A DNA stretch of 64,000 nt from an uncultured Candidatus Saccharibacteria bacterium (GTDB lineage: Bacteria; Patescibacteriota; Minisyncoccia; Phycocordibacterales; UBA9973). The notes under the pieces are model-generated. The model had not been told where the DNA came from. It ran no database searches and saw nothing but the letters and a program-made list of their open reading frames with translations. The stretch covers positions 26,064-90,063 of the forward strand of contig CAZDGL010000002.1 in assembly GCA_964505155.1 (NCBI GenBank), in the 5' to 3' direction. Position 1 is the first letter of the stretch, and the number at the start of each line of letters is the position of its first letter. A program made the position numbers and the translations under genes. This document shows positions 5,253 to 60,363 of the stretch, in pieces.

Positions 5253-5304
5253 ATTTTTTCTTTAGTATAGCAAAAATCCCCAACATTGGGGATTTTTGAA
5301 TTTA

Positions 5305-8182: not shown

Positions 8183-8188
8183 AAAATT

Positions 8189-8611: not shown

Positions 8612-8654
8612 TTGTCCCGCTATCCTACTATAGTTCTCAAGTAAACGCAAGCCC

Positions 8655-25906: not shown

Positions 25907-25908
25907 GA

Positions 25909-26556: not shown

Positions 26557-28318
26557 AAGTATTACTATCTATTGTAATTGTTTTCTCCGAAGTAGTATAG
26601 CCACTCTTGCTGACAGTAACAGTATAACTACCAGAAGAAAGTCCTGAGAAGTCTATCTGCCCTGGTGGTAAACATCCAGAAGTGTAAGTGATGGCTATAT
26701 CACTGATACTAGGAGTAAAAGAAGTATCATCTGTTGATAGTATTGCCTTATACCTTACATATCTATCACCATTGTGAATATCAGCTATATCGCTAGTTGG
26801 ATTTGTATAGTAGCTACTATCTGTTCCGTCTGGTCCCAAAAAGTCCCAGGTAGCATTATCGTTGTTGGTTGCAATTTGAAATTTTACTGACTGAGAACCT
26901 GTTTGAGCTGGCTGGTTTATAGGGCTCCAAGAGAGTTGTTGAAATACCGATGCCTCTCCAAGATCGATACTAGAAGATACGAGCTCTCCACTACTTATAT
27001 AACTAGCTCCTAAAAGTAAAAGCTCTAACTCTCCTTGGTTGGTAGAATAATCGACCCCTCCATCAGTACTAAAGAACATTGCTTGGTCTGTATAATTATC
27101 TTGTCCACTGCCTCCAATCCAACTTGTTTGAGAAACAGATCCTACACTGGTTTGATTTGTAAATGTACCAGAAGGACCAGAGACACTAACATCGGCACCA
27201 GCAACAGGAAGCCCGGCAACATCGGAGGCAGCGACAACCAATCGACTACCTGAGGTAGCGGGTTTTAGGGTTAAAGTGACCTGTTGACTTGATCCTGGAG
27301 AGATAGATAATGGGAAAATAGGATTTGTGCCTGCGATATCATAACTAGTACCAGAGAGTTCTACGTTATAAGTATCCCATTCTATATTTGCAATATTGTT
27401 GGAGGCGCTACTTAAACTAAAAGGAATTGTATTTTTTATAACGTCTGGATTTGTTCCAATGATTTTTGAACCTACTAGATTGCCACTCTCACCTGTGATG
27501 CTAGAGCACTGAGCAGATTGACCTTTTAGATCTATAGAGCTTGATTGGTCTATAGCAAAAGTACCTTGGCTTACAGTGTTGGCCACAATAGTTATGTGCG
27601 GTTTTGTTGGGTTTGGGTTACCGACACCACCTACAACATAAGTTTGCTCAGAAGAATATCCATTTTTTGTAACAGTAATATGATAACTCTCTGTAGAAGG
27701 TGGAGCATCAACGATAGTCAAAACACCAAAACTATCTGTGATATCGGTAAAATCAATAGCTGGATTGAGGGTGTCGTTTTGTATTCGTATAGTTGCATTT
27801 TGTACTGGCAAACCACTTGCATCGATAACTTTTATAACCAAAGCACCGTTTCCATTTTCTGTTTCCAAACTCTTGGGAGCAACGTTTGTTGTGTACTCTA
27901 TAGAAGTCTGGCTTTTGCAATCAACACAAGCGACTTCTATAACTACCAGCTTATTATCTGCAGGAGAAAGATCGTTAGGATTACCGCCCAATGTGCCATC
28001 TGCTGGTAGGTCTATGTTACGTATTGTTGTATTGACAACAAAACTAACACCGGCCCTTGAGATTGTCTTTGAAGCTGGGACAACACCAAGAGGAATACCA
28101 GAGACTATCCCAACGTCTGAGTATTGTAGGTTGCGGATAAACTCTATTTGTTCACTAGCAATCTGGTTGGCAATAGTTTTTATTCTGATTCGAGCAGAGA
28201 TCTCAATAACTTTTGCATAAAGCTGATATATCGCCAAAGAAAAAACAACAAAAAATGCCGCCGCAACCAATTTCTCTATTAAAGTTGTCCCTGCTTGATG
28301 ATTCTTACTCTTTATCAT
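26531..28318 (-). CDS. Large prepilin-like pseudopilin (595 aa)
   Basis: N-terminus AGTTLIEKLVAAAFFVVF, followed by a long Ser/Thr/Gly-rich beta-type extracellular region. Confidence 0.65.
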   Translation of the reverse strand: MIKSKNHQAGTTLIEKLVAAAFFVVFSLAIYQLYAKVIEISARIRIKTIANQIASEQIEFIRNLQYSDVGIVSGIPLGVVPASKTISRAGVSFVVNTTIRNIDLPADGTLGGNPNDLSPADNKLVVIEVACVDCKSQTSIEYTTNVAPKSLETENGNGALVIKVIDASGLPVQNATIRIQNDTLNPAIDFTDITDSFGVLTIVDAPPSTESYHITVTKNGYSSEQTYVVGGVGNPNPTKPHITIVANTVSQGTFAIDQSSSIDLKGQSAQCSSITGESGNLVGSKIIGTNPDVIKNTIPFSLSSASNNIANIEWDTYNVELSGTSYDIAGTNPIFPLSISPGSSQQVTLTLKPATSGSRLVVAASDVAGLPVAGADVSVSGPSGTFTNQTSVGSVSQTSWIGGSGQDNYTDQAMFFSTDGGVDYSTNQGELELLLLGASYISSGELVSSSIDLGEASVFQQLSWSPINQPAQTGSQSVKFQIATNNDNATWDFLGPDGTDSSYYTNPTSDIADIHNGDRYVRYKAILSTDDTSFTPSISDIAITYTSGCLPPGQIDFSGLSSGSYTVTVSKSGYTTSEKTITIDSNTYETIQLNP

Positions 28319-28323
28319 AAAAA

Positions 28324-29541
28324 CTATTTTATAGAGTCCATTATGGAGTACATCGGGGAGAGCATTGAAACAGCAAAGAATCCAACTGCCACTCCGATAA
28401 ATATCATAAGGACTGGTTCTATGATAGTAGAGAGGTCTTTGGTTTTGCTATCCACCTCTCCTTCATAAAATGTCGCCACATCTAGAAGCATACTACCGAG
28501 CTTTCCTGTCTCTTCACCGACCTCTATCATCTCTCCGACCATGACTGGATAGATTTTGGTATTTTCTTTGAAGATACTAGACATAGTGCCCCCTTTTTCT
28601 ATAGCTAAAGAAATATCATCCATGACTTTTTTATAATAAACATTTTGCAAAACTTCCTTGGTTATAGATATGGCCCGACCGATATTTACCCCCGAAGATA
28701 GTAGTGAGCTCATGGTTCTAGTTGTTCTAGCTGCATTCATTTCTTTTATTATTACACCGACAACAGGTAGTCTAACGACAAGCCAATCTATAGCCTTTTT
28801 GGTTCTTGGTATCTTCAAGATCATTATTACAATAAAAACTATAAAGATTATCCCCGCAACTAGTAAGAGCAAATGGTTGGAAATGAGATCACTGAGACCT
28901 ATAACAAACTTGGTAGATGAAGGAAGTTCTGTGCCGAGCTCTTTGAAAGTTTTGGTAAGAGTAGGTACCACATAAATAAACATCAGTATTCCAATAATAA
29001 AAATAGCTGCCAAAATAATACTCGGATACATCATGGCGCTTTTGACTTTTTTGTTCAAAGCGTAGCTTTTTTCAAGGTTTATACCTATCTCTGTCAGAGT
29101 ACTTGGCAATCCACCGGACTCTTCTCCTGCTCTAACCATCGAAACAAAGAGGGCTGAGAAGACTTTGGGATACTTGGCTAGTCCATCCGAAAAAGTCCCT
29201 CCGCGATCGATAGTCTCTGAAAGAGTTTGTATCACCTTTTGCAAAAATTTATTTTTGGTTTGACGAGACAAAACAGACAAAGCTCTAGTGAGAGGTAGTC
29301 CAGCCTTAAGCATTCCCGAGAGGTTTTTGGTAAAGAGAATCTTTTCACTAAGCTTAACCTTCCCGCCTCCGATAGAAAAAGACCCGAGCTTGGACAAAAA
29401 TCCGTTTGAAGTTTGATTAACAAAAAGCGGAACAACACCAAGATTGCGAAGTTCATTTATAGCCTCTACTCTATCTCGCGCCTCAACAATGCCTGTTGCT
29501 ATAGCTCCTTCTTTATTTCTTCCTTTATAAGAAAATTTCAT
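28324..29541 (-). CDS. pilC: Type IV pilus platform protein PilC (GspF family)
   Basis: 405 aa with duplicated GspF domains and three transmembrane segments. Confidence 0.85.
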   Translation of the reverse strand: MKFSYKGRNKEGAIATGIVEARDRVEAINELRNLGVVPLFVNQTSNGFLSKLGSFSIGGGKVKLSEKILFTKNLSGMLKAGLPLTRALSVLSRQTKNKFLQKVIQTLSETIDRGGTFSDGLAKYPKVFSALFVSMVRAGEESGGLPSTLTEIGINLEKSYALNKKVKSAMMYPSIILAAIFIIGILMFIYVVPTLTKTFKELGTELPSSTKFVIGLSDLISNHLLLLVAGIIFIVFIVIMILKIPRTKKAIDWLVVRLPVVGVIIKEMNAARTTRTMSSLLSSGVNIGRAISITKEVLQNVYYKKVMDDISLAIEKGGTMSSIFKENTKIYPVMVGEMIEVGEETGKLGSMLLDVATFYEGEVDSKTKDLSTIIEPVLMIFIGVAVGFFAVSMLSPMYSIMDSIK

Positions 29542-29744
29542 TCTTATATTGTATCAAATATTTAGTTTGTTTGTGAGTAAGGAATATTTTTTAGAACACC
29601 CTTTTGGCGAGCTCAGGACGAGTATTATCAAATTCGGATCAAAATATATATAAAAAATACACTAAGACAATCCTAATAAAGAAATTTTTTTAAAGCGTAT
29701 GTATACCATTAAAAAGAAAAAGGCCTCAATAGAGGCCTTTAATA

Positions 29745-30209
29745 TTATTTCACATTTACCACTGCGTTGAATATACCTCTTTTAAAGGTTTCAAGGCGCG
29801 GCAGGTCTGGATAGGCTGAGAGTACTTCAAACTCTATGGTACCGTTACTGTACCTGGCTTCTCTGATCCAAATTTGTGAATCAAGCCTTGATGAATTGAT
29901 AACGATGTTCCCATATTGAACTCCCCATCTTTTATCGTTGTTCCATTTGTCATCTCTCTCCAAAGTAAATCCGAAATTCAAATCAACTTGGAGTTCTTTG
30001 AAAATGACTATTAACGTAACCTTCGCCTGTTTTGTAGTTCTAATAGTACCGAAAACATCCTCTTTTCTTGGTAAGGAGAAAACGATCTTTTGTTCTACAA
30101 AGTCAAATTGTTTTGATTCAAGTAACCATTCAGTTACAAGAGTGGCAATGTGTATTGCCTTAGCTGACGATATGTTCATCGACAGCCTTTCTTCTTTTTT
30201 AAAGTACAT
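29745..30209 (-). CDS. Hypothetical protein (154 aa) between pilC and pilB
   Basis: ORF; no family recognised. Confidence 0.4.
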   Translation of the reverse strand: MYFKKEERLSMNISSAKAIHIATLVTEWLLESKQFDFVEQKIVFSLPRKEDVFGTIRTTKQAKVTLIVIFKELQVDLNFGFTLERDDKWNNDKRWGVQYGNIVINSSRLDSQIWIREARYSNGTIEFEVLSAYPDLPRLETFKRGIFNAVVNVK

Positions 30210-30379
30210 AAATTCCTGTATTAGGATTTTGGCAAGAAATACTCAATGCCAAATAGCCTTTAAGACTATATTAATTATAATATCACAAATACTAGATTAT
30301 GTCAAGTAATAATTATCAACAAACAAAACTATTTTCTAACTATTAGATTCCGAAATCCTCCAATGTTTGGATAAAAACC

Positions 30380-32128
30380 TTACTCACTCACCACACGCAA
30401 GACTTCATCTATCGTAGTGTTCCCTTGGATAGCTTGGAAAATACCGTCTTCGATCATGGTCATCATTCCCTCTTTTTTGGCTTGAGCTTCTACTTCATCG
30501 GCTGAACCACCGCGCAGGATTATTTCTTTGATTGTCGCTGAGACTTTGAGCGCTTCGTGAATACCGACACGTCCTTTGTATCCATCTTCTGATTCTTCAC
30601 TTTTTACAGGTTTATAAAAAGGTATTTCTTTCCAAGGAGTACCTGGCTTAATCAGGTTTTCGGCTTCTATAAATACTCGAGCATGATCTAGATCAACAAC
30701 ATCAGAGAGGGCTTTGAGTTCTCCGTCAGAGAGGAAGTATTTTTCTTTGGTAGCAGTCAATCTTCGCACCAAACGCTGAGCGACTATGACCTTGGCAGTT
30801 GAAACGATAAGGAATGGCTCCACTCCCATATCGATAAGTCTAGGAATCGCGCCGGCTGCTGAGTTGGTGTGGATAGTCGAAAGCACCAAGTGGCCAGTAA
30901 GAGCAGCGTTCACGGCAAGAGATGCTGTTTCGCCGTCACGGATCTCTCCCACCATGATGATGTTTGGGTCTTGTCGCAGAAGTGCGCGCAGACCATTGGC
31001 AAAGGTCATACCTATTTCACTTTTTACTTGAGTTTGGTTGATGCGTGGCATTTGATACTCTATCGGATCTTCGACAGTAGAGATGTTGACACTTGGAGTG
31101 TTCAAGATATCGAGCATGGTATAGAGAGTTGTAGTTTTACCAGAGCCAGTTGGTCCTGAAGCAAGCACGATACCTGAGTGTTGTTTCATACCTTCGTGAA
31201 TACGCTCCAGACTCTCTCCGTGAAATCCAAGCCCTTCGAGAGTAAAACCATGGGAGGATTCTCTTAAAATACGAATCACAGTTTTTTCACCAAAGTATGT
31301 CGGTAGTGTTGAGACACGGAAGGACACCGGAGTATCATCTAGGACTATTTTAAATCTTCCGTCTTGTGGAAGGCGCTTTTCGTCGAGTTTGAGATTTGAA
31401 AGCACTTTGATACGAGCAGTGATAGCTGGGGCTGCATCCTTGGGCAAGGTCATAGCGTCGTGCAAGATACCGTCAATACGATAGCGAACAATAAGAGCCT
31501 CTTCTCCAGGCTCAATGTGTATATCAGAAGTGTTTTGCAAGATGGCATGAGAAATCAAAGAGTCTACTATCTTTACCACTGGCAAATCCTCCGCCATTTG
31601 CTTCAAATCTTTTTCAGTGGTTTCGTCGTTTTTTTCATCCACCTTTTGAATGCTACCAACTTCTTTTTGGATTATTGAGTCAAACTCAGCTTGCAAGCTC
31701 TTTTTGTATTGAACCAAAACACTCTTGATAGAGTCACTATCTGTGAGACGTGGCAAGATACGAAGTCCTGTCTTTTTCTTTACGAAATCAATAGCCGGAA
31801 GATTGTCGATATCAAGTATACAAACTTCCAAGTCATTGCCTCTTTTTTTATAAGCAACAATGTTATATTTGCGAGCGATAGGCTCAGGTATCATCTGCAA
31901 GACATCTCTTTCTATCTTTTCTTTTTCAAGACTGAGATATGGTATACCCAAAACATAAGCTTGTAGCTTACGCAATTCTGGCTCTTTTACTTTACCTAGA
32001 GACAATACAAAGTCAGAAAGATTTGTATCCTTTTGTTTTTTTAACTTTTCAAAATTAGTAATATCATCTATTGATATTATTTTTGTATCGATCAAAAGAT
32101 TTTTGAGTTTTTCCTCATCAATAACCAT
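30380..32128 (-). CDS. pilB: Type IV pilus assembly ATPase PilB (GspE family)
   Basis: GSPII_E N-terminal domain, Walker A GPTGSGKTTTLY, Asp and His boxes. The start was placed at MVIDEEK, just after the upstream terminator. Confidence 0.9.
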   Translation of the reverse strand: MVIDEEKLKNLLIDTKIISIDDITNFEKLKKQKDTNLSDFVLSLGKVKEPELRKLQAYVLGIPYLSLEKEKIERDVLQMIPEPIARKYNIVAYKKRGNDLEVCILDIDNLPAIDFVKKKTGLRILPRLTDSDSIKSVLVQYKKSLQAEFDSIIQKEVGSIQKVDEKNDETTEKDLKQMAEDLPVVKIVDSLISHAILQNTSDIHIEPGEEALIVRYRIDGILHDAMTLPKDAAPAITARIKVLSNLKLDEKRLPQDGRFKIVLDDTPVSFRVSTLPTYFGEKTVIRILRESSHGFTLEGLGFHGESLERIHEGMKQHSGIVLASGPTGSGKTTTLYTMLDILNTPSVNISTVEDPIEYQMPRINQTQVKSEIGMTFANGLRALLRQDPNIIMVGEIRDGETASLAVNAALTGHLVLSTIHTNSAAGAIPRLIDMGVEPFLIVSTAKVIVAQRLVRRLTATKEKYFLSDGELKALSDVVDLDHARVFIEAENLIKPGTPWKEIPFYKPVKSEESEDGYKGRVGIHEALKVSATIKEIILRGGSADEVEAQAKKEGMMTMIEDGIFQAIQGNTTIDEVLRVVSE

Positions 32129-32191
32129 ATGTGCTTTTATTGTAACATGACCAAAAACAAAAACCCGCACCTCTGGGGTGCGGGTTTTTGT

Positions 32192-33412
32192 TTAAAATTC
32201 TATGAACAAGAACTTTCTTCTAAGAGAAACTGTTGCTTGATCTGAGGCCGAACTAGATCCATCAGTACAAGAAACTGTATAGGTTGTGTTCACTGTTGGT
32301 GAAACTGGAGTTGAGCCAGAAATAAGTCCACCTGTTGAAAATCCTATACCTGAACAAGAAGTCGCATTGTTAGATGACCAAGAAAGTGTTGATGACTCAC
32401 CCAAAGCTATTCTCTCTGGATTTGCTGTCAAAACAGCAGCCACCTCCGAACCTGTATCTTGTAAGACTTGCACTGTCTCTGAATCACTAGCACTACCATT
32501 TACTCCGGTACAAGATAGAGTAAAGGTTGTATTTGCGTAGAGATTGCCTGTTGATTCATGAGGATAAGAGCTACTTGTTGATCTACTGCCTGTCCAAGAA
32601 GCGCTTGCAGGGCTGGCACTAGCAGTACAAGAAGAGACGTTAGCTGAAGTCCAAGAAAGTGTTGACGAATTACCACTGAAAACACTTGAAGGAGAGACAT
32701 TTAGAGAAACAGACGGCGTAACCACGGTTGTTTGACAAACAGATCCGTTCCAAGAAGAGCCACTAGCACAACTAGTAGTAGCAGTATCTTGGTCGAGCAA
32801 AACGCTATTGTGATAAAGATAAAAGTCAGTATTTCCATATCCAAGCGTTACTGACTGAGAGCCACTAGAGAGCGGACTTGGAGTAAATGAGCTAGGTACT
32901 CCGGTACTACGAGTGATGCTTGTTGGGTTTATTGTGAGATTTGAAGTAGTCCAAGCAACAGAGCCGTTACAACTAGATGCTCCAGAACTTATAGTACAAC
33001 TTGTAGCTGAAAGAGATCCGGAAGGAACAGGAGCACTACTTACAACAACAAGTACTGAGTCTGTAGCATCAGACGAACCTGCTTTTGAACAAGTTATTTC
33101 AAAAACATAGTTACCAGCTACAAGTCCTGATACTATCTCAGAGCTACCACTAGCACTTTTTGCTCCTGACCAGTCAAGACTAGCAACACATGAATCTGGC
33201 GAACCACTAGTAGTCCAAGACAGGGTTGTTGTATTTGTCGGTAGTGTCATAGAAGAAGGAGAAGCTGTTATGTCTACACCGATAACTATAGGTGAACTCG
33301 ATGCCACAGTATAAGTCTCTGAGTGAGTATAGTATGTCCAGGCAGCCGAGCTTACAGACGGTATTGATACTGTTAGCAAACTTACAAATATTAGGGAAAT
33401 TATTTTTTTCAT
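32192..33412 (-). CDS. Secreted Ser/Thr-rich repeat protein (406 aa)
   Basis: Signal peptide, then three Ig-like repeats each carrying an LSWT(S/T)...SC(S/T)AS motif. Confidence 0.6.
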   Translation of the reverse strand: MKKIISLIFVSLLTVSIPSVSSAAWTYYTHSETYTVASSSPIVIGVDITASPSSMTLPTNTTTLSWTTSGSPDSCVASLDWSGAKSASGSSEIVSGLVAGNYVFEITCSKAGSSDATDSVLVVVSSAPVPSGSLSATSCTISSGASSCNGSVAWTTSNLTINPTSITRSTGVPSSFTPSPLSSGSQSVTLGYGNTDFYLYHNSVLLDQDTATTSCASGSSWNGSVCQTTVVTPSVSLNVSPSSVFSGNSSTLSWTSANVSSCTASASPASASWTGSRSTSSSYPHESTGNLYANTTFTLSCTGVNGSASDSETVQVLQDTGSEVAAVLTANPERIALGESSTLSWSSNNATSCSGIGFSTGGLISGSTPVSPTVNTTYTVSCTDGSSSASDQATVSLRRKFLFIEF

Positions 33413-33441
33413 AAACTTTAATAAATACTTAATAATTACTA

Positions 33442-35409
33442 CTAAAAGTTCTCAACTATATCTTGTGGACAAGTCCAACCATCGCATGCAACTGCTGAAC
33501 AATAGCCTCCTATATCGTGATCAATTTTACTAACTTCTAAATCGACCTCAAGTTGCCCTGGTAAAAACCTAGCTGTAAATTCTGACGTCTGTGGGACATC
33601 CTCATTGTCTGTTCTTATACGGAATGTAAAGTCTACTGAAGTGACCCCTCTAGCAGTGGCACTTGCTTCTGTAGCAACATCTCTTATTGCCTTAAGATAA
33701 CCAGTTTCACCAGAATAAGGATCGGGCATGATATTACAAATACCCATAATAGCTGCTAGATTAGTTTCATTGCCATAATTTTGAACAATAGCCGCATCAT
33801 TGTCTACCCCGGCAGTAAAATCTACATTATAGTTACCAGCAATAGGTTGGCCGTTTTGTGTCGGAACACTAACTTGAAAATCTCTCTGATCCCCCATAAA
33901 AGATGGTTGTGAAGGTCCTAGAGCAACTACGGTAGGGAAAATATCTTTTGAAATATTACCAATTGTGATAGCACTCAAGCTAACATCTCTAGTTAGAGAA
34001 GAAGCCGTATCCATATAGCCATCTACTAACAAAGTATCTCCTTGATTAAAAACAGTACTGCCTGGATTTAATGGATTAGAAATATTTACTATAACTCTTA
34101 TATCATTTTGAGCACCTATCCAGTAGGTCGCAGCCTGCGCTTTTGCACTAGGCAAGAAAGCTAAGACCAAAAACACTGCTATCCCTCCTATGGTAGTTAC
34201 TTTTTTTCTTTTCATAATGATTCCTATAGTTGCTATTATTATCAAAAGCAAGACTAGTAAGATAGCACCCTTCTTGCCAGAGAATATTCCAGAGTCTTTT
34301 GAAACTGATGTAGTCGGGATAGAAACATATCTCTCCACTATAGTTTCCCCGTCGACATCCTTGAGAGTAAGCGCTATCTTTGGATCATAACAATTCTTTT
34401 TTATAGAAACCAAAACACTTTGGTTAAAAACTGGCTTTTCAAAACTAGAAGATCCACAAACCACCCCTCTACCAGAAGAGATTTTGACTTCCATCGAAGC
34501 TACCTCTTTGGCATTTGATGTCCACAAAGTAGTGATATTTGCCACTTCGTTTTTCATATAAACATCTTTATCAGAAGAAATGTTGAAAATATTGGCGCTA
34601 AATCCGTAAGTGTTATAACTGATGATTATCTCATTTGTATTATTTGTGCCGTCAAAAAAAGATAGCTTGGTTTTGTAAACACCTGCATTTTGTGCAGTTG
34701 GTATCTTTAGAGAAAAAGCTTTTTTCTCTAAAGGCTTTAGGTTTACAGTATCAGAGATACTACTTACCTCTACAATATCTCCATATATACTTTGCGCTCG
34801 TGTTTCAAGATTTGGAGAAAGTGACAAGTCTTTTATACTAGGATTTGTTATAGAACAATCCAAAGTCAAACTCTGCCCAGCAAAAACTACAGGAGAGGCG
34901 CTTATAGCGTATTTCTTTTTCTCTCCCTTGCCTTCAACCAAAAGCGAACAAGTACTACTATCTAAAAACAGAGACTTTTGACTAGAGACAAGCTTGATAT
35001 CTCCCAGAGAATAATACCCGAGCATCAAACCAGAAGTATTTCCAACAAATAGATAAAGTGAATAATCTCCAGAGAGAGTCTTGGGTGCTTCATAAACTAT
35101 TGTTTTTCTGGTGGTGGAGTTTTCAAGTAGAGTTAAGTTTTCATCATAGACCTTTTCTTCCAAGATAGTGTTGGGTTTACCTTTGGGTGAGAGTCTGACA
35201 CTGTAGTAGACATTGTTCTGCGCACTCTTACCGTTTGTAAGCACAAAAGATATGTTGAATACTGAACCGACCTGGTCAACTATTTTTGCGCCGGAGATGT
35301 TAACATCGGCAACCATTGTTACGTTTGAAGTATTTTGCGCATTGGCAATATTTGCTAAGACAAAAAATAATAAAAGAGTGATTATAGAAAAATATTTGTT
35401 TAGTTTCAT
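33442..35409 (-). CDS. Large surface protein (655 aa) with a signal peptide and an internal TM/second signal-like segment
   Basis: N-terminal signal MKLNKYFSIITLLLFFVLANIANA. Internal GAILLVLLLIIIATIGIIMKRKK is followed by VTTIGGIAVFLVLAFLPSAKAQA. Confidence 0.55.
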   Translation of the reverse strand: MKLNKYFSIITLLLFFVLANIANAQNTSNVTMVADVNISGAKIVDQVGSVFNISFVLTNGKSAQNNVYYSVRLSPKGKPNTILEEKVYDENLTLLENSTTRKTIVYEAPKTLSGDYSLYLFVGNTSGLMLGYYSLGDIKLVSSQKSLFLDSSTCSLLVEGKGEKKKYAISASPVVFAGQSLTLDCSITNPSIKDLSLSPNLETRAQSIYGDIVEVSSISDTVNLKPLEKKAFSLKIPTAQNAGVYKTKLSFFDGTNNTNEIIISYNTYGFSANIFNISSDKDVYMKNEVANITTLWTSNAKEVASMEVKISSGRGVVCGSSSFEKPVFNQSVLVSIKKNCYDPKIALTLKDVDGETIVERYVSIPTTSVSKDSGIFSGKKGAILLVLLLIIIATIGIIMKRKKVTTIGGIAVFLVLAFLPSAKAQAATYWIGAQNDIRVIVNISNPLNPGSTVFNQGDTLLVDGYMDTASSLTRDVSLSAITIGNISKDIFPTVVALGPSQPSFMGDQRDFQVSVPTQNGQPIAGNYNVDFTAGVDNDAAIVQNYGNETNLAAIMGICNIMPDPYSGETGYLKAIRDVATEASATARGVTSVDFTFRIRTDNEDVPQTSEFTARFLPGQLEVDLEVSKIDHDIGGYCSAVACDGWTCPQDIVENF

Positions 35410-40860: not shown

Positions 40861-41451
40861 ATGTTAATCCCAACCGTACTCGAAAAAACACCGCAAGGTG
40901 AGCGTGCTTATGATATTTATTCTCGCCTTTTAAAAGATAGAATTATTTTCTTAAATGATGAGATCAACGACCACAATGCCAACCTTGTCATTGCTCAGCT
41001 TCTATTTTTAGCCAACGAAGATCCAAAAAAAGATATTTACCTTTATATCAATTCCCCTGGTGGCTCAGTCACCTCTACTATGGCAATGTATGACACTATC
41101 CAGTTCATCAAGCCTGATGTCGTTACTGTTTGTGTTGGTCTCGCTGCTTCTGGTGGAGCCATGCTACTACTATCTGGCTCAAAGGGCAAAAGATATGCAT
41201 TACCAAACTCTCGTATCATGATTCACCAACCACTAGGAGGTGCTCAAGGGCAAGTGAGTGATTTGGAAATAATTACCAAAGAATATCTAAGAACAAAAGA
41301 AAATCTCAATAAACTTATTGCCAAGCATACAGGTCAAAAGCTAGAAAAAATAGTAATAGATACAGACAGAGACTTCTTTATGTCTGCTGACGAAGCCAAA
41401 AAGTACGGCATTATTGACGCTGTTATTACCAAAAACCCTGGGGTAAATTAA
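40861..41451 (+). CDS. clpP: ATP-dependent Clp protease proteolytic subunit
   Basis: YINSPGGSV...GLAASGGAM...IMIHQPLGG, carrying the catalytic Ser and His. Confidence 0.92.
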
Positions 41452-42946: not shown

Positions 42947-42952
42947 TATAAC

Positions 42953-43513
42953 CTATTCAACAAATGGTTTTGCTTTTTCGTATTTAATAAAATAATACTT
43001 AGTACTATGATGGCTCCTATCATCATCCCCTCCGCCTCTGTGCTCACTGAGACGAATGTACTTTTGGCCATTTTTTTTGTTTATAACAACATCTACACTG
43101 TTGCCACTTCGAGTGATAAGGACATCCCCTGTTTTTGAAAAACTATCATTTGATCTAAAAATTCTACTACCAAAAGAGTCTTGTAGCTTGAGAAGCTTTC
43201 GTTTTTCTTCGTACATAGTATCTGTTGATGGCTGTTTACCGTTCTCTTCCCATAGTTTTTTCTCCCATGTATACCTAACAGGAGTTTCTTTTTTTTCTGT
43301 TGAATCAAAAACTTTCTGAGTAATAATTTCATCTTTAAGATGGTTAATGGTAGGCTGTTCTGCCGATTCTCTTTCCTCTTTCATTTTTTTGTAGAGCATT
43401 TCTTGAGCTTGTGCTTCTCTTTCAAAAAAACTTTTATTATGGGCATCATTCCAAGAAAGTTTCTCTTCCCCGCCTAATTCCTCATTGTTATCAGTAACCA
43501 TTTTTTCTGTCAT
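42953..43513 (-). CDS. Hypothetical acidic protein (186 aa)
   Basis: ORF; no family recognised. Confidence 0.4.
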   Translation of the reverse strand: MTEKMVTDNNEELGGEEKLSWNDAHNKSFFEREAQAQEMLYKKMKEERESAEQPTINHLKDEIITQKVFDSTEKKETPVRYTWEKKLWEENGKQPSTDTMYEEKRKLLKLQDSFGSRIFRSNDSFSKTGDVLITRSGNSVDVVINKKNGQKYIRLSEHRGGGDDDRSHHSTKYYFIKYEKAKPFVE

Positions 43514-43631
43514 ATGTCATAAGTATAACCTTTTTAAGGAAAAGTTAAAATTATGCCTTAAACAGAGCCTCTATGCCAAGCATGTCCAGTTATTAAAATA
43601 AAAAATCCCCGCTAATTGCGGGGATTTTTTA

Positions 43632-43841
43632 TTATTTGTTGTGTAGATCTTCTCTTTTTTCTGCCATTCTTTTAGCAATCTCTGCTTCACTACCAAAGAA
43701 AACCTCTCCGTCACCAAGATCTTTTGAGTATCTTGGATTTCCTTTAGCGTCATACATTTCTTTGTTGCCACCTGAACCACGTTCTGGGGCATCAGCCATC
43801 TCTTCTAAAGCATTTTTTTCCATTTCGTTTTCTATTGACAT
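43632..43841 (-). CDS. Small acidic hypothetical protein (69 aa)
   Basis: ORF followed by a terminator at 43600-43630. Confidence 0.35.
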   Translation of the reverse strand: MSIENEMEKNALEEMADAPERGSGGNKEMYDAKGNPRYSKDLGDGEVFFGSEAEIAKRMAEKREDLHNK

Positions 43842-43893
43842 AATTTGACAAAATATTATTTATATGATACAATTGTATTAAATTGCAACAAAA

Positions 43894-44391
43894 ATGTCAA
43901 GCATTATCCCTATTTATGGGGAAATCAACAAACAAACAGTTGCTGAAGTAAAGAGTTTTTTAAAAAAAGTATTAGCAAATCCTACAGATAAAAATATTAT
44001 TTTTGAATTTAATTCTGAAGGTGGCGATCTAGAGAGCATAAGAAGAATCAAGACTTTTATGTACGCTATGAATAAATGGGGGTTTAAAATAATCGGTAGG
44101 ATTATTTACGCCGAATCAGCCGCTTTGCTTTTATTCCTTAATTGTGAAGAAAGGCAGGTTACAAAAGAAAGTATAGGTGTAATTCATATACCGGTACTCA
44201 ACCGCCAATATAGCCTCAAAAAACTTGAAGAAGAAAGGGGTGATCAAGCGTCTTTCATCATGAGAAGATGTAAAATGAAAATAATGTGGAAACAGATTTT
44301 TGAACTTGAGGGCAAGAAGCTTAGTTGCCAAGAACTCATTGATCTCGGATTTGCTAATAAGTTGGTACAAACTTTTACTTTAGTAGCATGA
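43894..44391 (+). CDS. ClpP-like (S14/ClpP-crotonase fold) peptidase paralog, 165 aa
   Basis: FNSEGGDL...MYAM..., IYAESAALLL and VIHIP align with the ClpP blocks INSPGG / GxAAS / MIHQP. Its stop overlaps the start of the downstream ATPase (ATGA). Confidence 0.6.
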   Translation: MSSIIPIYGEINKQTVAEVKSFLKKVLANPTDKNIIFEFNSEGGDLESIRRIKTFMYAMNKWGFKIIGRIIYAESAALLLFLNCEERQVTKESIGVIHIPVLNRQYSLKKLEEERGDQASFIMRRCKMKIMWKQIFELEGKKLSCQELIDLGFANKLVQTFTLVA

Positions 44392-47165
44392 GGTTGGACA
44401 TTTTGTTCAACCTTTTTTATTTTTCAAGTTATACTATAACCATGTTCACCCCCAAAGAAACATTTGTCTCTCAAGAAGCTGAGATTGGTCACATCGCTAG
44501 CGAATCACAGCGCTCTTATATATTGCAAGAAGGCGGTATCAGGACCAGAGAACAAGCTACTCACAAAACTATCGAGGAGTACGCCCAAGTAGAAGCCAAA
44601 GACTTTTTACATGAAACTCGCGCCCTTCCCGCTCACGAAGCAGAGCGCATCGTCCTCAAACTAAAACCAGAAACACATGACCAAAAGATAGAAGAGCTCT
44701 TTGGGCTAATGCTAGAGAAAGGTATCAAAAACGCTTTGGATATCGCCCACAAACTAGCTGACCCACACCTCGAAGATGACTTCCATAGATTTTTGGTTCA
44801 ATATTTACACACTATCGGCGCTATCCCAGGACTAAAAGAAAAGGATGACACTTATAAACATTTAAATCACACCCTCTTTTCTATCGCCCTGCCACCAGAG
44901 AGCGAGGAGTCTGACTTCAAAAAGAAAGTCGGGGCTATGGGGCAGTTTTATACTAGCTTGATTAGTCTTGTGGGTATCGAAAACACCATCTCTATCGAAC
45001 TAGCTGTTGAGCAACAAACCAAAAACATCACTATCTATACAGCAATCCCTCGTGACAATATCGATGGCTTTGAAAAGTTGGTTCATTCTTTTTTCCCTGG
45101 GTCAGCTGTTGAGGAAGTAGTTGATGACTTCAATATTTTTGGAGATAAGACTAGTGCTATATCTGTAAGCTTAGCGAAGCTCAAAGAAGATCCTTACAAA
45201 CCACTCAAAACCTACAACGATTTTGACAACGATCCTTTTTCAGCTACCCTTGGAGCTTTGTCACAAATAGCTGAGACCGGCGAAGGTTGCGCGTTACAAA
45301 TCATCCTCTCAGAGAGTCTTCATCGTATCGCCGAGCGCAACAACCACATCCTAGCCGAAGCCCAAAACGGATCTGGCAAAGTCAAAGACTTGTACAAAAA
45401 TGCTGTCGAAGACTTAGGAAAAGGCTTGGCCAAAGAAGTCTTTAGTCTTTTCAAAAAATCAAAAGAAGAAAAGGAAGGTCAAGAGAAAAATATAGACACT
45501 GAAGGCGTCGAGCTTCTCAAAAAGAAAAACGATTCTCGGATAGTTGAAGCTTCTATTCGTATCATCGCTTCTTCTAAAGACCTCACTCGTGCCAACCAAA
45601 TGCGCTCTAGTGTAGAGGCAAGCTTTAGTCAGTATAGCCTTGTTGGAGGCAACGCTTTGGAGTGGCAAGAAGTCAAAGGCACCAAAATTTTGGAAGAGTG
45701 CAGGTCGTTTTCTTTCCGAACACACTCTGACAACAAAATGGAACTCTCTTTAAACGAAGTCTCTTCTCTTGTTCACTTCCCTACAAATGCCAAGGGCCCT
45801 AGCGAACTACAAAACAATGACAGCGCAAGTGCTCCAGCCCCTCTTAACGCTTCCAAAAATGTTGAGGGTGTCTATCTAGGGACCAATACTTTCCGAGGTA
45901 GAACCAGCGATGTTTTCTTGGCCAAAGAAGACCGAGTGCGTCACTGCTATGTCGTCGGACAAACAGGTACTGGTAAAACCACTATCTTAAAAAACATGGC
46001 TATCCAAGATATCCAAGCTGGCAACGGTATCTGTTTTATCGATCCACACGGCAATGACATAGAAGACATCCTCGCCAACATTCCAGCCGAGAGACTCGAT
46101 GACGTTATCTACTTTGATCCAGCTTATACTGCTCGACCAATGGGGCTCAACATGCTCGAATACGACATAAACTATCCAGAGCAAAAAATATTTGTTATCA
46201 ATGAACTCCTCGGTATCTTCAACAAACTCTTTGATATGAAAACAGCTGGAGGTCCGGCCTTTGAACAATACTTCCGCAACTCTGCTGGGCTGGTCATGGA
46301 AGATCCAGAAAGTGGCTCTACACTACTTGAGATCAGTCGTGTCATGAGTGACAAAGCCTTTCGAGCTCTCAAACTTTCAAGATGTAAGAACCCAATCATC
46401 AAACAATTCTGGGAAAATGCCGAAAAGACTACCGGCGAAGCATCTCTTGCCAACTTTGTGCCCTACATCACCAACAAGTTTGACCCCTTTGTTTCCAACG
46501 ACATCATGCGCCCAGTGATAGCTCAGCAACACAGTGTACTTAACTTCCGCGAAATCATGGATGGCAGAAAAATCCTTCTAGTAAATCTATCGAAGGGTCG
46601 CCTCGGGGACATCAACTCTCACCTTATCGGACTTTTGTTAGTAGGCAAGATAACTATGGCAGCACTTTCTCGTGTAGACATTGTCGGCAAAGAAAAGATA
46701 AATGACTTCTATCTTTATATCGATGAATTCCAAAACGTCACTACTGATTCTATTGCTACTATCCTCTCTGAGGCTCGAAAATATCGCCTAGCACTCACTG
46801 TCGCCCATCAATACATCGAACAGCTTGAAGAAAAAATCAAAAACGCAGTCTTTGGCAACGTCGGCAACATGATCATCTATCGCGTCAGTCCAGAAAATGC
46901 TTCTGTCTTTGAAAAACAACTTGCGCCGACATTTACGCCAGATGACGTCCTTAAACTTCAAAACTTCAATGCCTATGCCAAGATACTTGTTGGCGGTGTA
47001 CCTGAAAAACCATTCAATCTACGCATCCCTCCTCCACCAAAGGGCAACTTAGCTATTTCCGAGAAGATCAAAGAGCTTTCATACCTCAAATACGGCCGTC
47101 CGAGAGAAGAAGTAGAAGCTGAAATCCTCTCTAGATATAAACCAAAAGAAGAGCTAACTAGTTAA
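44388..47165 (+). CDS. FtsK/HerA/VirB4-superfamily P-loop ATPase (925 aa) with an N-terminal domain of unknown function
   Basis: Walker A VVGQTGTGKTT (about 45950). Walker B LYIDEFQNV followed by ARKYRLALTVAHQ (about 46715-46800), a pattern resembling HerA/VirB4/TraD. The N-terminal 450 aa are unassigned. Confidence 0.65.
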   Translation: MRLDILFNLFYFSSYTITMFTPKETFVSQEAEIGHIASESQRSYILQEGGIRTREQATHKTIEEYAQVEAKDFLHETRALPAHEAERIVLKLKPETHDQKIEELFGLMLEKGIKNALDIAHKLADPHLEDDFHRFLVQYLHTIGAIPGLKEKDDTYKHLNHTLFSIALPPESEESDFKKKVGAMGQFYTSLISLVGIENTISIELAVEQQTKNITIYTAIPRDNIDGFEKLVHSFFPGSAVEEVVDDFNIFGDKTSAISVSLAKLKEDPYKPLKTYNDFDNDPFSATLGALSQIAETGEGCALQIILSESLHRIAERNNHILAEAQNGSGKVKDLYKNAVEDLGKGLAKEVFSLFKKSKEEKEGQEKNIDTEGVELLKKKNDSRIVEASIRIIASSKDLTRANQMRSSVEASFSQYSLVGGNALEWQEVKGTKILEECRSFSFRTHSDNKMELSLNEVSSLVHFPTNAKGPSELQNNDSASAPAPLNASKNVEGVYLGTNTFRGRTSDVFLAKEDRVRHCYVVGQTGTGKTTILKNMAIQDIQAGNGICFIDPHGNDIEDILANIPAERLDDVIYFDPAYTARPMGLNMLEYDINYPEQKIFVINELLGIFNKLFDMKTAGGPAFEQYFRNSAGLVMEDPESGSTLLEISRVMSDKAFRALKLSRCKNPIIKQFWENAEKTTGEASLANFVPYITNKFDPFVSNDIMRPVIAQQHSVLNFREIMDGRKILLVNLSKGRLGDINSHLIGLLLVGKITMAALSRVDIVGKEKINDFYLYIDEFQNVTTDSIATILSEARKYRLALTVAHQYIEQLEEKIKNAVFGNVGNMIIYRVSPENASVFEKQLAPTFTPDDVLKLQNFNAYAKILVGGVPEKPFNLRIPPPPKGNLAISEKIKELSYLKYGRPREEVEAEILSRYKPKEELTS

Positions 47166-47182
47166 ATCAAAAGATTTTATGT

Positions 47183-48148
47183 GTGGTATTATATGGCTAT
47201 ATGACAGAAAAAATACCACCAGCAAATGAGATCTTACAAGAAAATTTAAATCCAGATCAAGAAAAAGGAAAGGATGTTAAGGTAGACCCTGTAGCCATGG
47301 AAGATTTAGAAAAATTAAACTCAGAAATTGAGTTTCGTGGCACAGAAACGGCAGAAATAATAAGAGATGCTCAGGCTAAAAAAGAGCTTGGTACTGAGTC
47401 TTGGAATAGTGAACCAGTGACTGTTTACAGCGCCTCACCAAAACAATCTCCTTCTAATAAATTTCGTAACGGTATTATGGGTCTTAAAATAGCTCTTGCA
47501 GGACTTCTAGGCCTTGGGGCAACAAAAGAATCCAAAGCCAGCACCCCAGAAGATAGTCTTGGTAAAAAGCCTTTGATAGAAAAAGTAAATACTGGTGGTA
47601 TTGAAATAAAAGAAGGCCTAAAAATCAGAGAGATCACTCCTTCAGAAAGAAATGATTGGAATAATTTTATAGATTTTGTTGAATCAAAAGGTCTTAAAGG
47701 TTCTGAAAAGTTAGACAAAGGTAGCGATGCTTTAGCTCGAAGTTTATTTACTGAATACAAAAAACTCCACCCAAATACAACTATAAACTACGAATCAGTT
47801 CCATCTTTCCAGTATGAAATGCAAAAACTAAAACAACAAGCTCAAGGTTTTGCCAAGAGAAGAAATGACCCTAATGCAGATAAAATAATGAGTTTTGTTT
47901 CTAAGGTTGATGGCTGGTTTGGCAAACAAACTTCTCAATCAAAATTTCCTTTTATGGTCGAAAATACTTACCACAATGACGCACTTATTTCTTCTGAAAA
48001 CCTCGGACTTATAGGTGCAGATATGACTCCTGAAAAAAGAGAGCAGATTATGAAAAAAGTTCCTGCAGGAAAACAACTAGAAGAATTAGCTGACGGCTTT
48101 TATTATCAAAACGATGATGGAGATTTTATAAAAGTCTCTAATAAATAA
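47183..48148 (+). CDS. Hypothetical protein with a central TM segment (321 aa)
   Basis: GIMGLKIALAGLLGLGA hydrophobic helix; last gene before the terminator at 48155-48185. Confidence 0.45.
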   Translation: MVLYGYMTEKIPPANEILQENLNPDQEKGKDVKVDPVAMEDLEKLNSEIEFRGTETAEIIRDAQAKKELGTESWNSEPVTVYSASPKQSPSNKFRNGIMGLKIALAGLLGLGATKESKASTPEDSLGKKPLIEKVNTGGIEIKEGLKIREITPSERNDWNNFIDFVESKGLKGSEKLDKGSDALARSLFTEYKKLHPNTTINYESVPSFQYEMQKLKQQAQGFAKRRNDPNADKIMSFVSKVDGWFGKQTSQSKFPFMVENTYHNDALISSENLGLIGADMTPEKREQIMKKVPAGKQLEELADGFYYQNDDGDFIKVSNK

Positions 48149-48507
48149 AAATAAACCGCCTCTCATAACTGAGGCGGTTTTTCATAGAACATTTTTCTTT
48201 TTTATAACAGCAACGTTTTGATTATTTGTTTTTTGATTCTTTCAAGAAGGATCGGTGGATCAAGATAGCTACAACCGAAACTACAACAAGGAAAGAATTA
48301 AAACAAATAATGATCAGATTTAACGTTGCTTGGTTCATAAAGTATTGGTTATTTGCTTATAGTATAGCATATATGAATCTATATGTCAATTTTGCATCAA
48401 AAAACCCTTGATATATAATGGTGTTAGCGTAAAGCTAGCCAAATAGCTTACACGCTCTGACGAGAATTATCAGACGCAATCCCTAAAAAGGATAAAAAAG
48501 AACAACT

Positions 48508-53521: not shown

Positions 53522-53596
53522 GCACCCGTGGTGAAATGGATATCACAACGGTCTTCGGAACCGTCGTTCCAGGTTCGAATCCTGGCGGGTGCACCA
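53522..53596 (+). tRNA. tRNA-Arg (anticodon TCG), CCA encoded
   Basis: GCACCCGTGGTGAAATGGATATCACAACGGTCTTCGGAACCGTCGTTCCAGGTTCGAATCCTGGCGGGTGCACCA. Confidence 0.85.
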
Positions 53597-53632
53597 CTAC
53601 GCTAAAGCTTCGCGGTGCGAGCACAAAAATTA

Positions 53633-55161
53633 TGGACAAATCCAAAATCCCTCCATTTGTTTCACATGTAACACAAACCCTGCAAAATGCGGGTTTTGAA
53701 GCATATTTGGTAGGTGGATGTGTAAGAGACTTGCTTATGTCCAAGGAACCCAAAGATTGGGACCTGACAACAAATGCTCACCCAGAGCAAATACAAGAAG
53801 TCTTCAAAGATCTGAAAACTGTGTGTGAAAACAACTTTGGAACTGTAACAGTTTTAAATATGACCCCTGTTTCACATGAAAATGTTACACCCGACGACAC
53901 TGAAGCTGTGCCGGGCAGGCGCCAAACACCAGACCAAGACAACACTGTCCAAGTAACAACCTACCGTTCAGAGGCTGGTTATTCAGACAATAGGCGCCCA
54001 GATAGTGTTTCATATGAAACAAAACTTGAAAAAGATCTAGAAAGGAGAGACTTTACTATGAATGCTATAGCCTACGACCCTATAAAAGACGTTATAAAGG
54101 ACAGTTTTGAGGGTATAAAGGACATAAAGGACAAAATAGTAAGATGTGTCCTTGATCCAGAAATACGCTTCTCAGAAGACGCCCTACGCATCATGAGAGC
54201 TATAAGGTTTTCCACAACCTTGGGTTTTGTTATAGAAAGCGAGACTTTCGATGCTATTTTGAAAAAAGCAGATTCTATTCAAAACATCTCTGCCGAAAGA
54301 ATACGGGATGAATTTATGAAAATCATAGACTCTGATGCTCCAGCAGTAGGTATAGATATGATGCAAAAAGCTGGTATTTTGAAACACATAATCCCAGAAC
54401 TAGAAGAGGGTATAGGTTGTGATCAAAAAGGAGCTCATATATATGATGTTTATCAGCACTTGTTACACGCTCTTCAGCACTCGGCTGACAAGGGCTTTTC
54501 TCGCGCTATCCGTCTTTCAGCCCTTTTTCACGATATAGGTAAACCTGCCACCCGTAGATATGATGCCAAAAAAGACAAATATACCTTTTTTGGGCACGAA
54601 GTAGTTGGTGCTCGCATGACCAAAAAGATACTAGAGAGGCTAAAAGTTCCACGTGAAACAGTAGATATAGTTGTTTCTATGGTTAGAAACCATATGTTTT
54701 TCTCTGATACTGAGCAAATCACGCTCTCAGCCGTCAGAAGAATTATCCAAAAGGTTGGTCCAGAGCATATTTGGGAGCTTATGCAGGTGCGTGAGTCTGA
54801 TAGGGTAGGGATGAAAAAAGCTGAAGCACCATACCGACTACGCAAATACCATGCCATGATAGAAGAAGCGCTCCGAGATCCAATCTCAGTTTCACAGCTG
54901 GCCATCGATGGTGCCTATCTAATCAACGAATTGAAAATGAAACCCGGACCACGAATGGGCTGGATACTCCACGCACTCCTTGAGGAAGTCCTTGAAGATC
55001 CGAGTCTAAACACTATTGAAGCTCTTACAGAGCGAGTAAAAGACCTCGATGAACTTGAAGATAAAGACTTGAAGATATTGGGGGAGAAAGGAAAGGAGAA
55101 AAAGGAAACTCTAGATCAAGAAGAGGTCAAAAAACTCCGAACCAAACATAGCGTAAAGTAG
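53633..55161 (+). CDS. cca: CCA-adding tRNA nucleotidyltransferase with HD domain
   Basis: LVGGCVRDLLM...DWDL head domain, then the HD motif FHDIGK. The true start MDKSKIPP lies after the tRNA. Confidence 0.85.
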
Positions 55162-59335: not shown

Positions 59336-60265
59336 TTATCTCTTGCTGTGATACCTCTTATGTACCTCTCTCAGTTGACTGTCTGTAACATGAGTGTAAA
59401 TCTGAGTAGTAGCAATATTGGCATGTCCAAGCATGACTTGAACTGAGCGGATGTCGGCGCCGTTTGAGAGGAGATCAGTAGCAAAGCAGTGTCGGATGAC
59501 GTGGGGAGTGACCTTTTTGGAGATACCGGCTTTGACAGCGCACTGTTTGACGATGCGCTCGACAGAACGACGAGTGAGGGGTTTGATATCCATGTTGTTT
59601 TTGTTGCTCTTTTCGCCAGTGCCAAGCTGGACAAAGAGTGCATCAGACATATCTTTGCGAAGTTTCAAATATTTTTTGAGTGTCTCACGAGCCTCTTCGG
59701 AGATAAAAACCACTCTGATCTTGCCACCTTTTCCGCGGATAGAAAATTCGCCTTGAGTAAAGTCGATGTCGTTGGTGAGTGAACAAAGCTCAGAGACACG
59801 CAGTCCTGTCGAGAAGAGTAGCTCAAGTATCGCCTTGTCGCGCAAGCTTTTGATATCGTCGCCTTCTGAAGACTTGAGCAATCTGCTGAGCTCACCCTGA
59901 GAAATCAAATCCAAATGTCGCTCGGGGACTTTGGCGAGATCTATCTCTTCGGCCGACATGCTCTTAATCTTTTTGCGAGTGAGGTACTTGAGAAATACAC
60001 GCAGGGCTATCATGTAGTAGTTTTGAGTTTTACGAGAGACGGTTTTGCCGGTAGACTTGTTGTTGCCCATGCTTTGGCGGTTGAGCCAGAGACGGAATTC
60101 TCGAACCTTATCTGCATTGATGTCTTGTGGGTTTTCAACTTTTGAAAAGCTCAAAAAGCGAGTGATGTAGTGATCATAATTTTCGACAGTCTTTAAACTA
60201 CGACCTTTTTCTATCTCTATGTGTTCTAAGAATTCTCTCTTAAGTTGTTCTATTTGTGTTGCCAT
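59336..60265 (-). CDS. xerC: Tyrosine recombinase, XerC/XerD family
   Basis: C-terminal HVIRHCFATDLL...GHANIATTQIYTHV containing the R..HxxR..Y catalytic residues, plus the N-terminal SAM-like domain. Confidence 0.85.
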   Translation of the reverse strand: MATQIEQLKREFLEHIEIEKGRSLKTVENYDHYITRFLSFSKVENPQDINADKVREFRLWLNRQSMGNNKSTGKTVSRKTQNYYMIALRVFLKYLTRKKIKSMSAEEIDLAKVPERHLDLISQGELSRLLKSSEGDDIKSLRDKAILELLFSTGLRVSELCSLTNDIDFTQGEFSIRGKGGKIRVVFISEEARETLKKYLKLRKDMSDALFVQLGTGEKSNKNNMDIKPLTRRSVERIVKQCAVKAGISKKVTPHVIRHCFATDLLSNGADIRSVQVMLGHANIATTQIYTHVTDSQLREVHKRYHSKR

Positions 60266-60363
60266 TTGTATATAGAGTCGCACAATAATTGTAGCACTAC
60301 TCATAAATATTAAGGTAAATATAGTACTTGCATTTTTTTGGTATTTATGTTATGATGACTATT

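Follow-up and report, generated by a model that had tools for sequence, protein, structure and literature searches.

A DUF8128 ATPase that evolves like a core gene, and its two accessory-like neighbours, on a Patescibacteria chromosome

The window analysed here is a stretch of 64,000 nucleotides from an uncultured Candidatus Saccharibacteria bacterium (Patescibacteriota; Minisyncoccia; Phycocordibacterales; UBA9973), corresponding to positions 26,064 to 90,063 of the forward strand of contig CAZDGL010000002.1 (GenBank assembly GCA_964505155.1). It carries three consecutive genes for a ClpP-like protein, a large P-loop ATPase and a protein designated c20, which are together referred to as the trio. 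In our judgement the ATPase is probably a core chromosomal, soluble member of the VirB4/VirD4 superfamily that docks on a membrane machine, most plausibly one resembling a type IV secretion system (T4SS), with c20 and the ClpP-like protein as lineage-specific accessories. The part of this reading that comes directly from the comparisons comprises the family identity of the ATPase, its architecture, the lack of a transmembrane (TM) anchor, synteny, distribution and relative rates of evolution. The family is known but uncharacterised, and its architecture departs in two defining features from that of canonical type IV coupling proteins (T4CPs).

Family and architecture of the ATPase

The three open reading frames (ORFs) were found where the original prediction had placed them. 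The genes and signals of the locus are the following, the parts of the ATPase being numbered from its probable start:

43845–43873, plus strand: promoter-like site TTGACA-17-TACAAT with TG, 20 nt 5' of the ClpP-like start codon
43894–44391, plus strand: ClpP-like ORF, 165 aa, from the ORF list
44388–47165, plus strand: ATPase ORF, 925 aa if the first ATG is used, from the ORF list
44390–44414, plus strand: hairpin then TTTTATTTTT, between the ClpP-like stop codon and the likely ATPase start
44442–47165, plus strand: DUF8128/coupling-protein-like ATPase, 907 aa from Met19, from homolog lengths and gene calls on related contigs
44442–44831, plus strand: helical N-terminal extension of the ATPase, residues 1–130, from the secondary structure of an AlphaFold2 (AF2) model
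44832–45815, plus strand: alpha/beta domain, residues 131–458, modelled with the fold of a VirB4 N-terminal domain
45816–47165, plus strand: RecA-type ATPase half with the Walker A and B motifs
45957–45980: Walker A, residues 506–513
46710–46727: Walker B, residues 757–762, then ARKYRLALTVAHQ
47183–48148, plus strand: third ORF, 321 aa from its first start, from the ORF list
47201–48148, plus strand: c20, 315 aa from Met7, the length of a 100%-identical database protein
48153–48180, no strand assigned: G+C-rich hairpin of 10 pairs with A/T runs on both sides, 3' of c20

The last hairpin looks like a bidirectional terminator and agrees with the closing terminator of the original prediction. The 4-nt ATGA overlap that had been described between the ClpP-like and ATPase genes hinges on the upstream ATG, which sits at the base of the hairpin with T-run at 44390–44414; this hairpin looks like a terminator or an attenuator. 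Because the homologs (895–915 aa) align only from window Met19, because the gene calls on related contigs give an ATPase of 907 aa after a gap of 45–55 nt, and because the hairpin intervenes, the overlap is probably an artefact and the ATPase probably starts at 44442. For the third gene, Met7 (47201) is the probable start. In G+C content the three genes match the surrounding sequence. It should be noted that the promoter-like site at 43845–43873 is a consensus match only (11 of 12 positions) and that the number of such sites in the region is not above that in shuffled sequence.

Judged by sequence, the ATPase belongs to the Pfam family DUF8128 (PF26449). The assignment was made via precomputed matches on homologs: PF26449 is annotated, covering the N-terminal half, on the 99%-identical protein P0001, on most of the 120 listed homologs and on the genes of related contigs, and the UniRef title of the ortholog at locus L080 reads “DUF8128 domain-containing protein”. 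There are more than 964 homologs, named Paceibacterota, Minisyncoccia or Nomurabacteria, all of these being Patescibacteria/CPR lineages. The Walker motifs and the block downstream of them, all noted in the original prediction, are present, with GQTGTGKT (Walker A), YLYIDEF (Walker B) and ARKYRLxLTVAHQ invariant in 28 homologs, and the membership of the ATPase in the FtsK/HerA/VirB4/VirD4 clade is likewise supported.

Within this clade the P-loop half gives its best sequence matches to T4CPs (VirD4, TrwB, TraD, DotL), with which it also shares an extended, largely helical insert that separates the two Walker motifs. The matches are to SXT_TraD (E 3e-17) and TOL TraD (E 1e-11) in NCBIfam and to TrwB_AAD_bind (26.5 versus a gathering score of 20.5, over 46 residues only) and TraG-D_C (23.2 versus 22) in Pfam. 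In sequence searches of the PDB the only meaningful matches were TrwB and DotL, and a PDB profile search from the alignment of 28 sequences gave nothing beyond these two at the Walker A stretch. VirB4 and HerA models score the ATPase far worse than coupling-protein models do: the VirB4 model TIGR00929 reaches E 2e-4 (19.6 bits versus a cut-off of 643), Pfam CagE_TrbE_VirB gives no match at E up to 0.1, and Pfam DUF87 scores 21.1, which is under its gathering score of 23.2.

The N-terminal region had been left unassigned in the original prediction. ATPase residues 1–458 were modelled with AF2 from an alignment of 14 sequences (predicted local distance difference test score, 81; predicted template modelling score, 0.74), and in a Foldseek search with this model the top twelve matches were all TrwK chains, each with a probability of 1.00. 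Because the modelled fold matches these chains, the region is predicted to consist of a helical extension of about 130 residues, which contains the invariant motif DDFHRFLVQY, and then a VirB4-type N-terminal domain. The label “VirB4-like” was thus a fair one as far as the modelled N-terminal domain shares the fold of that of VirB4. No TM helix is predicted in the ATPase, the highest 19-residue Kyte-Doolittle mean (1.54) lying inside the ATPase core and the maximum within the first 135 residues being 0.51; the protein is predicted to be soluble and to be without an N-terminal TM anchor.

The ATPase therefore differs from T4CPs in that it has no N-terminal TM helices and, instead of these, a soluble region of about 460 aa with the modelled VirB4 fold, and in that it is encoded by a core chromosomal gene that in the window is not linked to a relaxase or a T4SS. 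From VirB4 proteins (TrwK, TraC, CagE), which it resembles in the modelled fold of the N-terminal domain, it differs in that the VirB4 sequence models barely register, in that there is no VirB3, VirB6 or VirB8 nearby, and in its neighbours, which are clpP, rny and HU or Map and Ndk. Unlike HerA and FtsK, it has no HAS-barrel and is not partnered by NurA, Sir2 or another effector, and its DUF87 match is subthreshold.

In a subfamily of 790–840 aa (the 823-aa subfamily) the first approximately 130 residues are missing, and its matches in a search of representative sequences begin at profile position 131. At two such loci, L084 and L086, a separate gene for 129–135 aa (L084, 7615–8004; L086, 7601–8008) overlaps the ATPase start by 4–8 nt as the counterpart of window positions 44442–44831. 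The small protein of L084 aligns co-linearly with residues 89–122 of the window ATPase (pairwise, E 1e-4); with that of L086, an hhalign comparison with the N-terminal alignment was not significant. On the strength of the L084 match and of gene position, residues 1–130 of the ATPase appear to be the equivalent of a small helical protein encoded on its own, joined by gene fusion or separated by gene fission. Neither small protein has a predicted TM helix, which distinguishes them from VirB3, so that the resemblance to VirB3-VirB4 fusions is one of position only.

The family has been recorded before, under another name. In a survey of Patescibacteria, 5,713 homologs of VirD4-type T4CPs were found in 2,918 of 3,035 genomes, only 148 of these homologs being near virB4, and VirB4 was found in 2,417 of the 3,035 genomes; exaptation of the T4CP homologs to another role was considered possible (Quinonero-Coronel et al., 2025; PMC12102498). 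The ortholog at locus L079, which is 51% identical to the window ATPase, is identical in sequence to KKP60121.1, and this protein is given in Table S3 of the survey as a T4CP (CONJscan profile t4cp1, 88% coverage) that is not near virB4. Its genome, GCA_000990275.1, encodes a separate VirB4, located 471 genes from the ATPase ortholog. This listing means that the ATPase family has a catalogue entry already, as an orphan T4CP homolog; the VirB4 of GCA_000990275.1 is a different protein. The term “DUF8128” is absent from the papers searched.

Distribution of the ATPase and of its flanking genes

A pattern scan over one genome per GTDB species revealed a relative of the ATPase in 432 or more species genomes. 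With an N-terminal profile, 1,614 clusters at 50% identity were matched (E up to 1e-3). Genes were called in 84 loci and their neighbours clustered. Two gene orders are found, namely type A, tig-clpP-rny-[variable spacer]-ATPase-(c20)-HU, to which the window belongs, and type B, L15-SecY-Adk-(PyrH-like)-Map-ATPase-Ndk, and in a neighbour-joining tree of the ATPase type A forms one clade nested within type B. The ATPase gene is single, fixed in position and present in every related genome examined. Identity to the window copy is 61–89% for the ATPase, 68–89% for RNase Y and 65–75% for ClpP, and it is 21–71% for the ClpP-like protein and 26–34% for c20. The ATPase changes at the slow pace of RNase Y, in the manner of a core gene; its neighbours have the profile of accessory genes. 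The statement in the original prediction that the trio is “not a housekeeping module” does not hold for the ATPase, which is conserved in at least 432 species genomes, in two housekeeping contexts and at a rate like that of RNase Y. As a side observation, at the type B loci L036, L040, L042, L046, L051, L053, L060, L077, L079, L082 and L083 the interval from the PyrH-like gene to Map, close upstream of the ATPase, contains a gene for a Cys-rich protein (about 570 aa, many CxxC pairs) in one to three copies.

The flanking genes are much less widespread. c20 lies directly 3' of the ATPase in 17 of the 84 loci, all of type A, where it is patchy and present in about half of the clade. The ClpP-like gene precedes the ATPase in 6 of the 84; all six also carry c20, and five of them fall in the seven-member subclade of the window, the sixth being L019. 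The proposal that the three genes co-occur as a unit is not borne out by these counts: the trio is real in the lineage of the window but is not a conserved system. In the simplest history it came together at the root of the type A clade, with repeated losses of the flanking genes afterwards, which is to say that both are probably accessories that were present at the origin of the clade.

The ClpP-like protein matches Pfam CLP_protease with E 9e-5 (22.8 bits versus a gathering score of 20.2), and a profile of ten members of its family aligns with the genuine ClpP of the window over 152 columns (hhalign probability 96%, E 3e-9). The genuine clpP (40861–41451; Pfam E 2e-83) lies 3 kb upstream, and the ClpP-like gene is, as had been predicted, an extra, truncated paralog that keeps Ser and His. 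A word-seeded search found nine homologs. In the ten sequences only Met1, Gly43, Gly44, Ser75, Arg87, His98 and Leu138 are invariant, Ser75 and His98 being kept while the identity within the family drops to 16–31%. Features in common with ClpP are the xSxGG loop, a Ser that opens the next helix and the His of the IH.P block; the alignment methods disagree by two residues on how Ser75 lines up with the ClpP Ser. An intact catalytic triad, an idea raised earlier, is not what the alignment contains: the position of the ClpP Asp is occupied by Gly or Asn, and no acidic residue is conserved nearby. Besides the Asp, the protein lacks about 25 N-terminal residues that form the axial loops of ClpP (S14), the hhalign alignment beginning at ClpP residue 28, and its handle region is short by about 7 residues (gaps of 2 and 5); it also evolves much faster than ClpP. 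Since the invariant residues, except for Met1 and Leu138, are elements of ClpP-type serine peptidases, the pattern argues for a family that retains Ser-His chemistry. Since the N-terminal and handle residues are missing, a tetradecamer driven by ClpX or ClpC is unlikely.

The third protein, c20, begins with a tail of about 90 residues, after which come a single hydrophobic segment rich in Ala and Gly and a C-terminal part of about 200 residues. It had been described as a single-TM protein. In favour of this, the hydrophobic segment recurs at residues 87–125 in nearly all of the 17 family members; against it, the segment is weak, with a Kyte-Doolittle value of 1.33 in the window copy. The recurrence at the same place suggests that c20 crosses the membrane once, with the N-terminal tail in the cytoplasm and the C-terminal part outside. 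c20 matched no family in Pfam, NCBIfam, PADLOC or PHROG. Its sequence VDGWFGKQT recalls a PG_binding_1 motif, an assignment that was dropped after a Pfam scan of 10 members at E up to 1 had given no match.

Surrounding genes of the window

The genes around the trio are those of a core chromosome, among them EF-Tu, EF-G, ComEC, RecJ, PGK, TIM, NusA, pyrophosphatase and tig, and the window also contains a type IV pilus cluster, ClpP, RNase Y, HU, the CCA-adding enzyme and tRNAs. Individual features of interest are:

13079–14536, minus strand, and 19344–20984, minus strand: ComEC (Competence domain E 1e-38) and RecJ
24425–35409, minus strand: type IV pilus gene cluster, adjoining the PGK and TIM genes
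25909–26556: pilin-like protein with N-methylation motif, in the pilus cluster
28324–29541: PilC, in the pilus cluster
30380–32170: PilB-type ATPase (T2SSE E 3e-120)
42953–43513, minus strand: ORF of 186 aa without family match, in the rny-ATPase spacer
43632–43841, minus strand: conserved small acidic ORF of 69 aa, divergent from the ClpP-like gene
59336–60304, minus strand: XerC/XerD-type tyrosine recombinase (Phage_integrase E 2e-45)

The spacer between rny and the ATPase (window 42947–44441) holds differing small genes on either strand in the type A loci L001–L059. The 69-aa ORF in it has the motif MSxEN...DAPERG...MYD...EVFFGS, is followed after its stop codon by a terminator hairpin of 16 pairs (43597–43633) and has homologs of 67–71 aa at the same position in L031, L087 and L089; in the more distant loci L004 and L033 a different small acidic ORF is found there. 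The pilus cluster includes large proteins with CarboxypepD_reg/PEGA or PKD-like domains. At L084, in the 823-aa DUF8128 subfamily, a pilus cluster lies about 2 kb downstream of the ATPase. ComEC and RecJ are encoded 25–30 kb from the ATPase, and there is no evidence linking them to it. Similarly, nothing suggests that the tyrosine recombinase, which is 11 kb from the trio, bounds an element containing it. The longest ORF of the CCA-adding enzyme (53536–55161, plus strand) overlaps tRNA-Arg(TCG) (53522–53596), so that the true start of this gene is probably further downstream.

Competing explanations and significance

The principal rival to our reading is that the trio is one functional module in this clade, with the ClpP-like peptidase maturing or degrading c20 or a cargo and with the ATPase handing this substrate to or through the membrane, loosely like mycosin and EccC/EccE in type VII secretion. 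We hold this to be unlikely, but it has specific observations on its side. In nine of nine contexts the ClpP-like gene immediately precedes the ATPase in the same orientation, at a distance of 36–70 nt; wherever it is present and the downstream side is visible, a gene for 290–390 aa follows the ATPase (six of six GTDB loci and two metagenome contigs); and the invariance of Ser75 and His98 at such low overall identity also speaks for it. Set against these is that the ATPase is kept without either neighbour in most lineages, namely in all of type B and in about half of type A, that the interval separating the ClpP-like gene from the ATPase contains a T-run hairpin and a promoter-like site distinct from that of the former, that the nested distribution is confounded by shared ancestry, and that c20 contains no known domain pointing to a role as substrate.

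Decay of a mobile element, leaving either a prophage remnant with a prohead protease and a packaging ATPase or a conjugative T4SS fragment in which the ATPase is VirB4, is a very improbable source of the trio. The ClpP-like protein does have weak matches to head maturation proteases (NF045542, E 1e-4, 22 bits versus a cut-off of 120; phrog_53, E 3.5e-4), phrog_5156 matches ATPase residues 178–898 with E 1e-74, the ATPase has relatives of 21–24% identity among Bacillus and Geobacillus phages and among plasmids of Gram-positive bacteria and archaea, and the modelled VirB4-like N-terminal domain also counts in its favour. For example, the homolog of Bacillus subtilis plasmid CP120602.1 (locus L092, 913 aa, 6449–9190) is upstream of TcpD/TcpE-like conjugation genes, and the phage relatives (PHROG 5156) lie in the early regions of the Bacillus and Geobacillus phages. 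In Geobacillus phage TP-84 (locus L091) the homolog (5212–7476) is found among hypothetical early genes, which give no clue to its function, and a small gene for a “putative membrane protein” overlaps its start. However, no terminase, portal, capsid, relaxase, VirB3, VirB6 or VirB8 was found in Pfam scans of the main ORFs of the window, so that the trio is not flanked there by phage or T4SS genes, and the ClpP-like protein, unlike phage head maturation proteases, has no capsid, portal or terminase genes nearby; it had no tblastn match in 50,697 phage records. The ATPase does not fall cleanly into VirB4, whose models reach only E 2e-4, and the related genome GCA_000990275.1 has its separate, distant VirB4. 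The G+C content of the trio is like that of the surroundings, and the synteny of the ATPase with core genes is conserved across hundreds of species. Any origin in mobile elements would be ancient and followed by domestication, rather than leaving a recent remnant; the distant phage and plasmid relatives fit such a history, one that began long ago in mobile elements of monoderm bacteria and led to domestication on the chromosome.

Least probable of all is a compact anti-phage defence system of a HerA-type ATPase and a protease effector: the PADLOC match to mad8 (E 8e-13), the weak matches to HerA models (E 1e-5 to 3e-4) and the variable spot formed by the rny-to-ATPase spacer (59 nt to 2.7 kb) could be taken for it, but these PADLOC matches are partial (mad8 over the P-loop half, the HerA models over the Walker A stretch), no other MADS, Dnd or Sir2 genes are present and no full gene set of PADLOC-DB 2.0 was matched, the ClpP-like protein gave only chance-level Cas2 matches in PADLOC, the modelled N-terminal domain is VirB4-like and not a HAS-barrel, the single, syntenic ATPase with its RNase Y-like identity is the opposite of patchy defence genes with their fast turnover, and most genomes with the ATPase lack the proposed effector. 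Defence system, prophage remnant and T4SS fragment are all rejected as readings of the trio. An FtsK substitute in chromosome segregation was likewise considered and set aside; no evidence spoke for it or against it.

The preferred reading is that of the ATPase as a core chromosomal motor of Paceibacteria-type Patescibacteria that probably serves a T4SS-like machine, with c20 and the ClpP-like protein as accessories. The ATPase would form a ring at the cytoplasmic face of a membrane machine and there use ATP either to drive a polymer, DNA or protein, or to gate its passage; it would dock on the machine via its VirB4-like N-terminal domain and not via membrane helices of its own. The likeliest partner would be the chromosomal T4SS-like apparatus of Patescibacteria, encoded elsewhere; c20 is a plausible local membrane dock or a substrate. 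The ClpP-like protein is probably a Ser-His peptidase, either self-contained or decayed, with a partner or a cargo of the ATPase as its target, and would not be a chamber dependent on a Clp ATPase.

Several points weigh against this reading. S. epibionticum can grow as an epibiont without its t4cp homolog (PMC12102498), which would count here if that homolog were a DUF8128 protein, and no recognisable coupling protein was found in the essential T4SS cluster of that species (Wang et al., 2023). The ATPase misses all curated T4CP and VirB4 cut-offs of NCBIfam by a wide margin, the T4CP models giving 35–62 bits versus cut-offs of 250–800 (62 versus 366 for the best model). The link between the DUF8128 family and the Patescibacteria T4SS is drawn from sequence, and the functional roles given here to the three proteins are drawn from sequence and from a modelled fold. 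Strict adjacency and nested distribution could also mean that the trio is a real functional unit in its clade, and the hairpin between the ClpP-like gene and the ATPase, which argues against tight co-translation, remains compatible with read-through.

A bolder reading is doubtful, and we would place it somewhat below even the module described above. According to it the DUF8128 ATPase is an unrecognised hybrid of a VirB4-type N-terminal domain and a coupling-protein motor without anchor, a near-universal, housekeeping-grade translocation motor of Patescibacteria that acts as the missing T4SS ATPase or in a separate route, and that is combined in the clade of the window with a dedicated, minimal Ser-His peptidase of the ClpP fold and an adaptor that passes the membrane once. 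If true, the family would be either the missing coupling or energising ATPase of an essential, relaxase-less T4SS or the motor of an undescribed transport route.

For annotation, the presence of a DUF8128 ATPase should not be taken to indicate a defence island, a prophage or a conjugative element. Of lesser interest is the ClpP-like gene, which codes for a minimal protein of the ClpP fold and has kept its place beside the motor in a few lineages. With respect to the phylum, Patescibacteria depend on host cells, a T4SS-like machine is essential in the one genetically tractable species, and orphan T4CP homologs are found in almost every genome. Two results, that one of these orphan families has a VirB4-type N-terminal domain, as modelled, and no membrane anchor, and that the same DUF8128 family evolves like a core gene, provide a testable handle on the role of these proteins.

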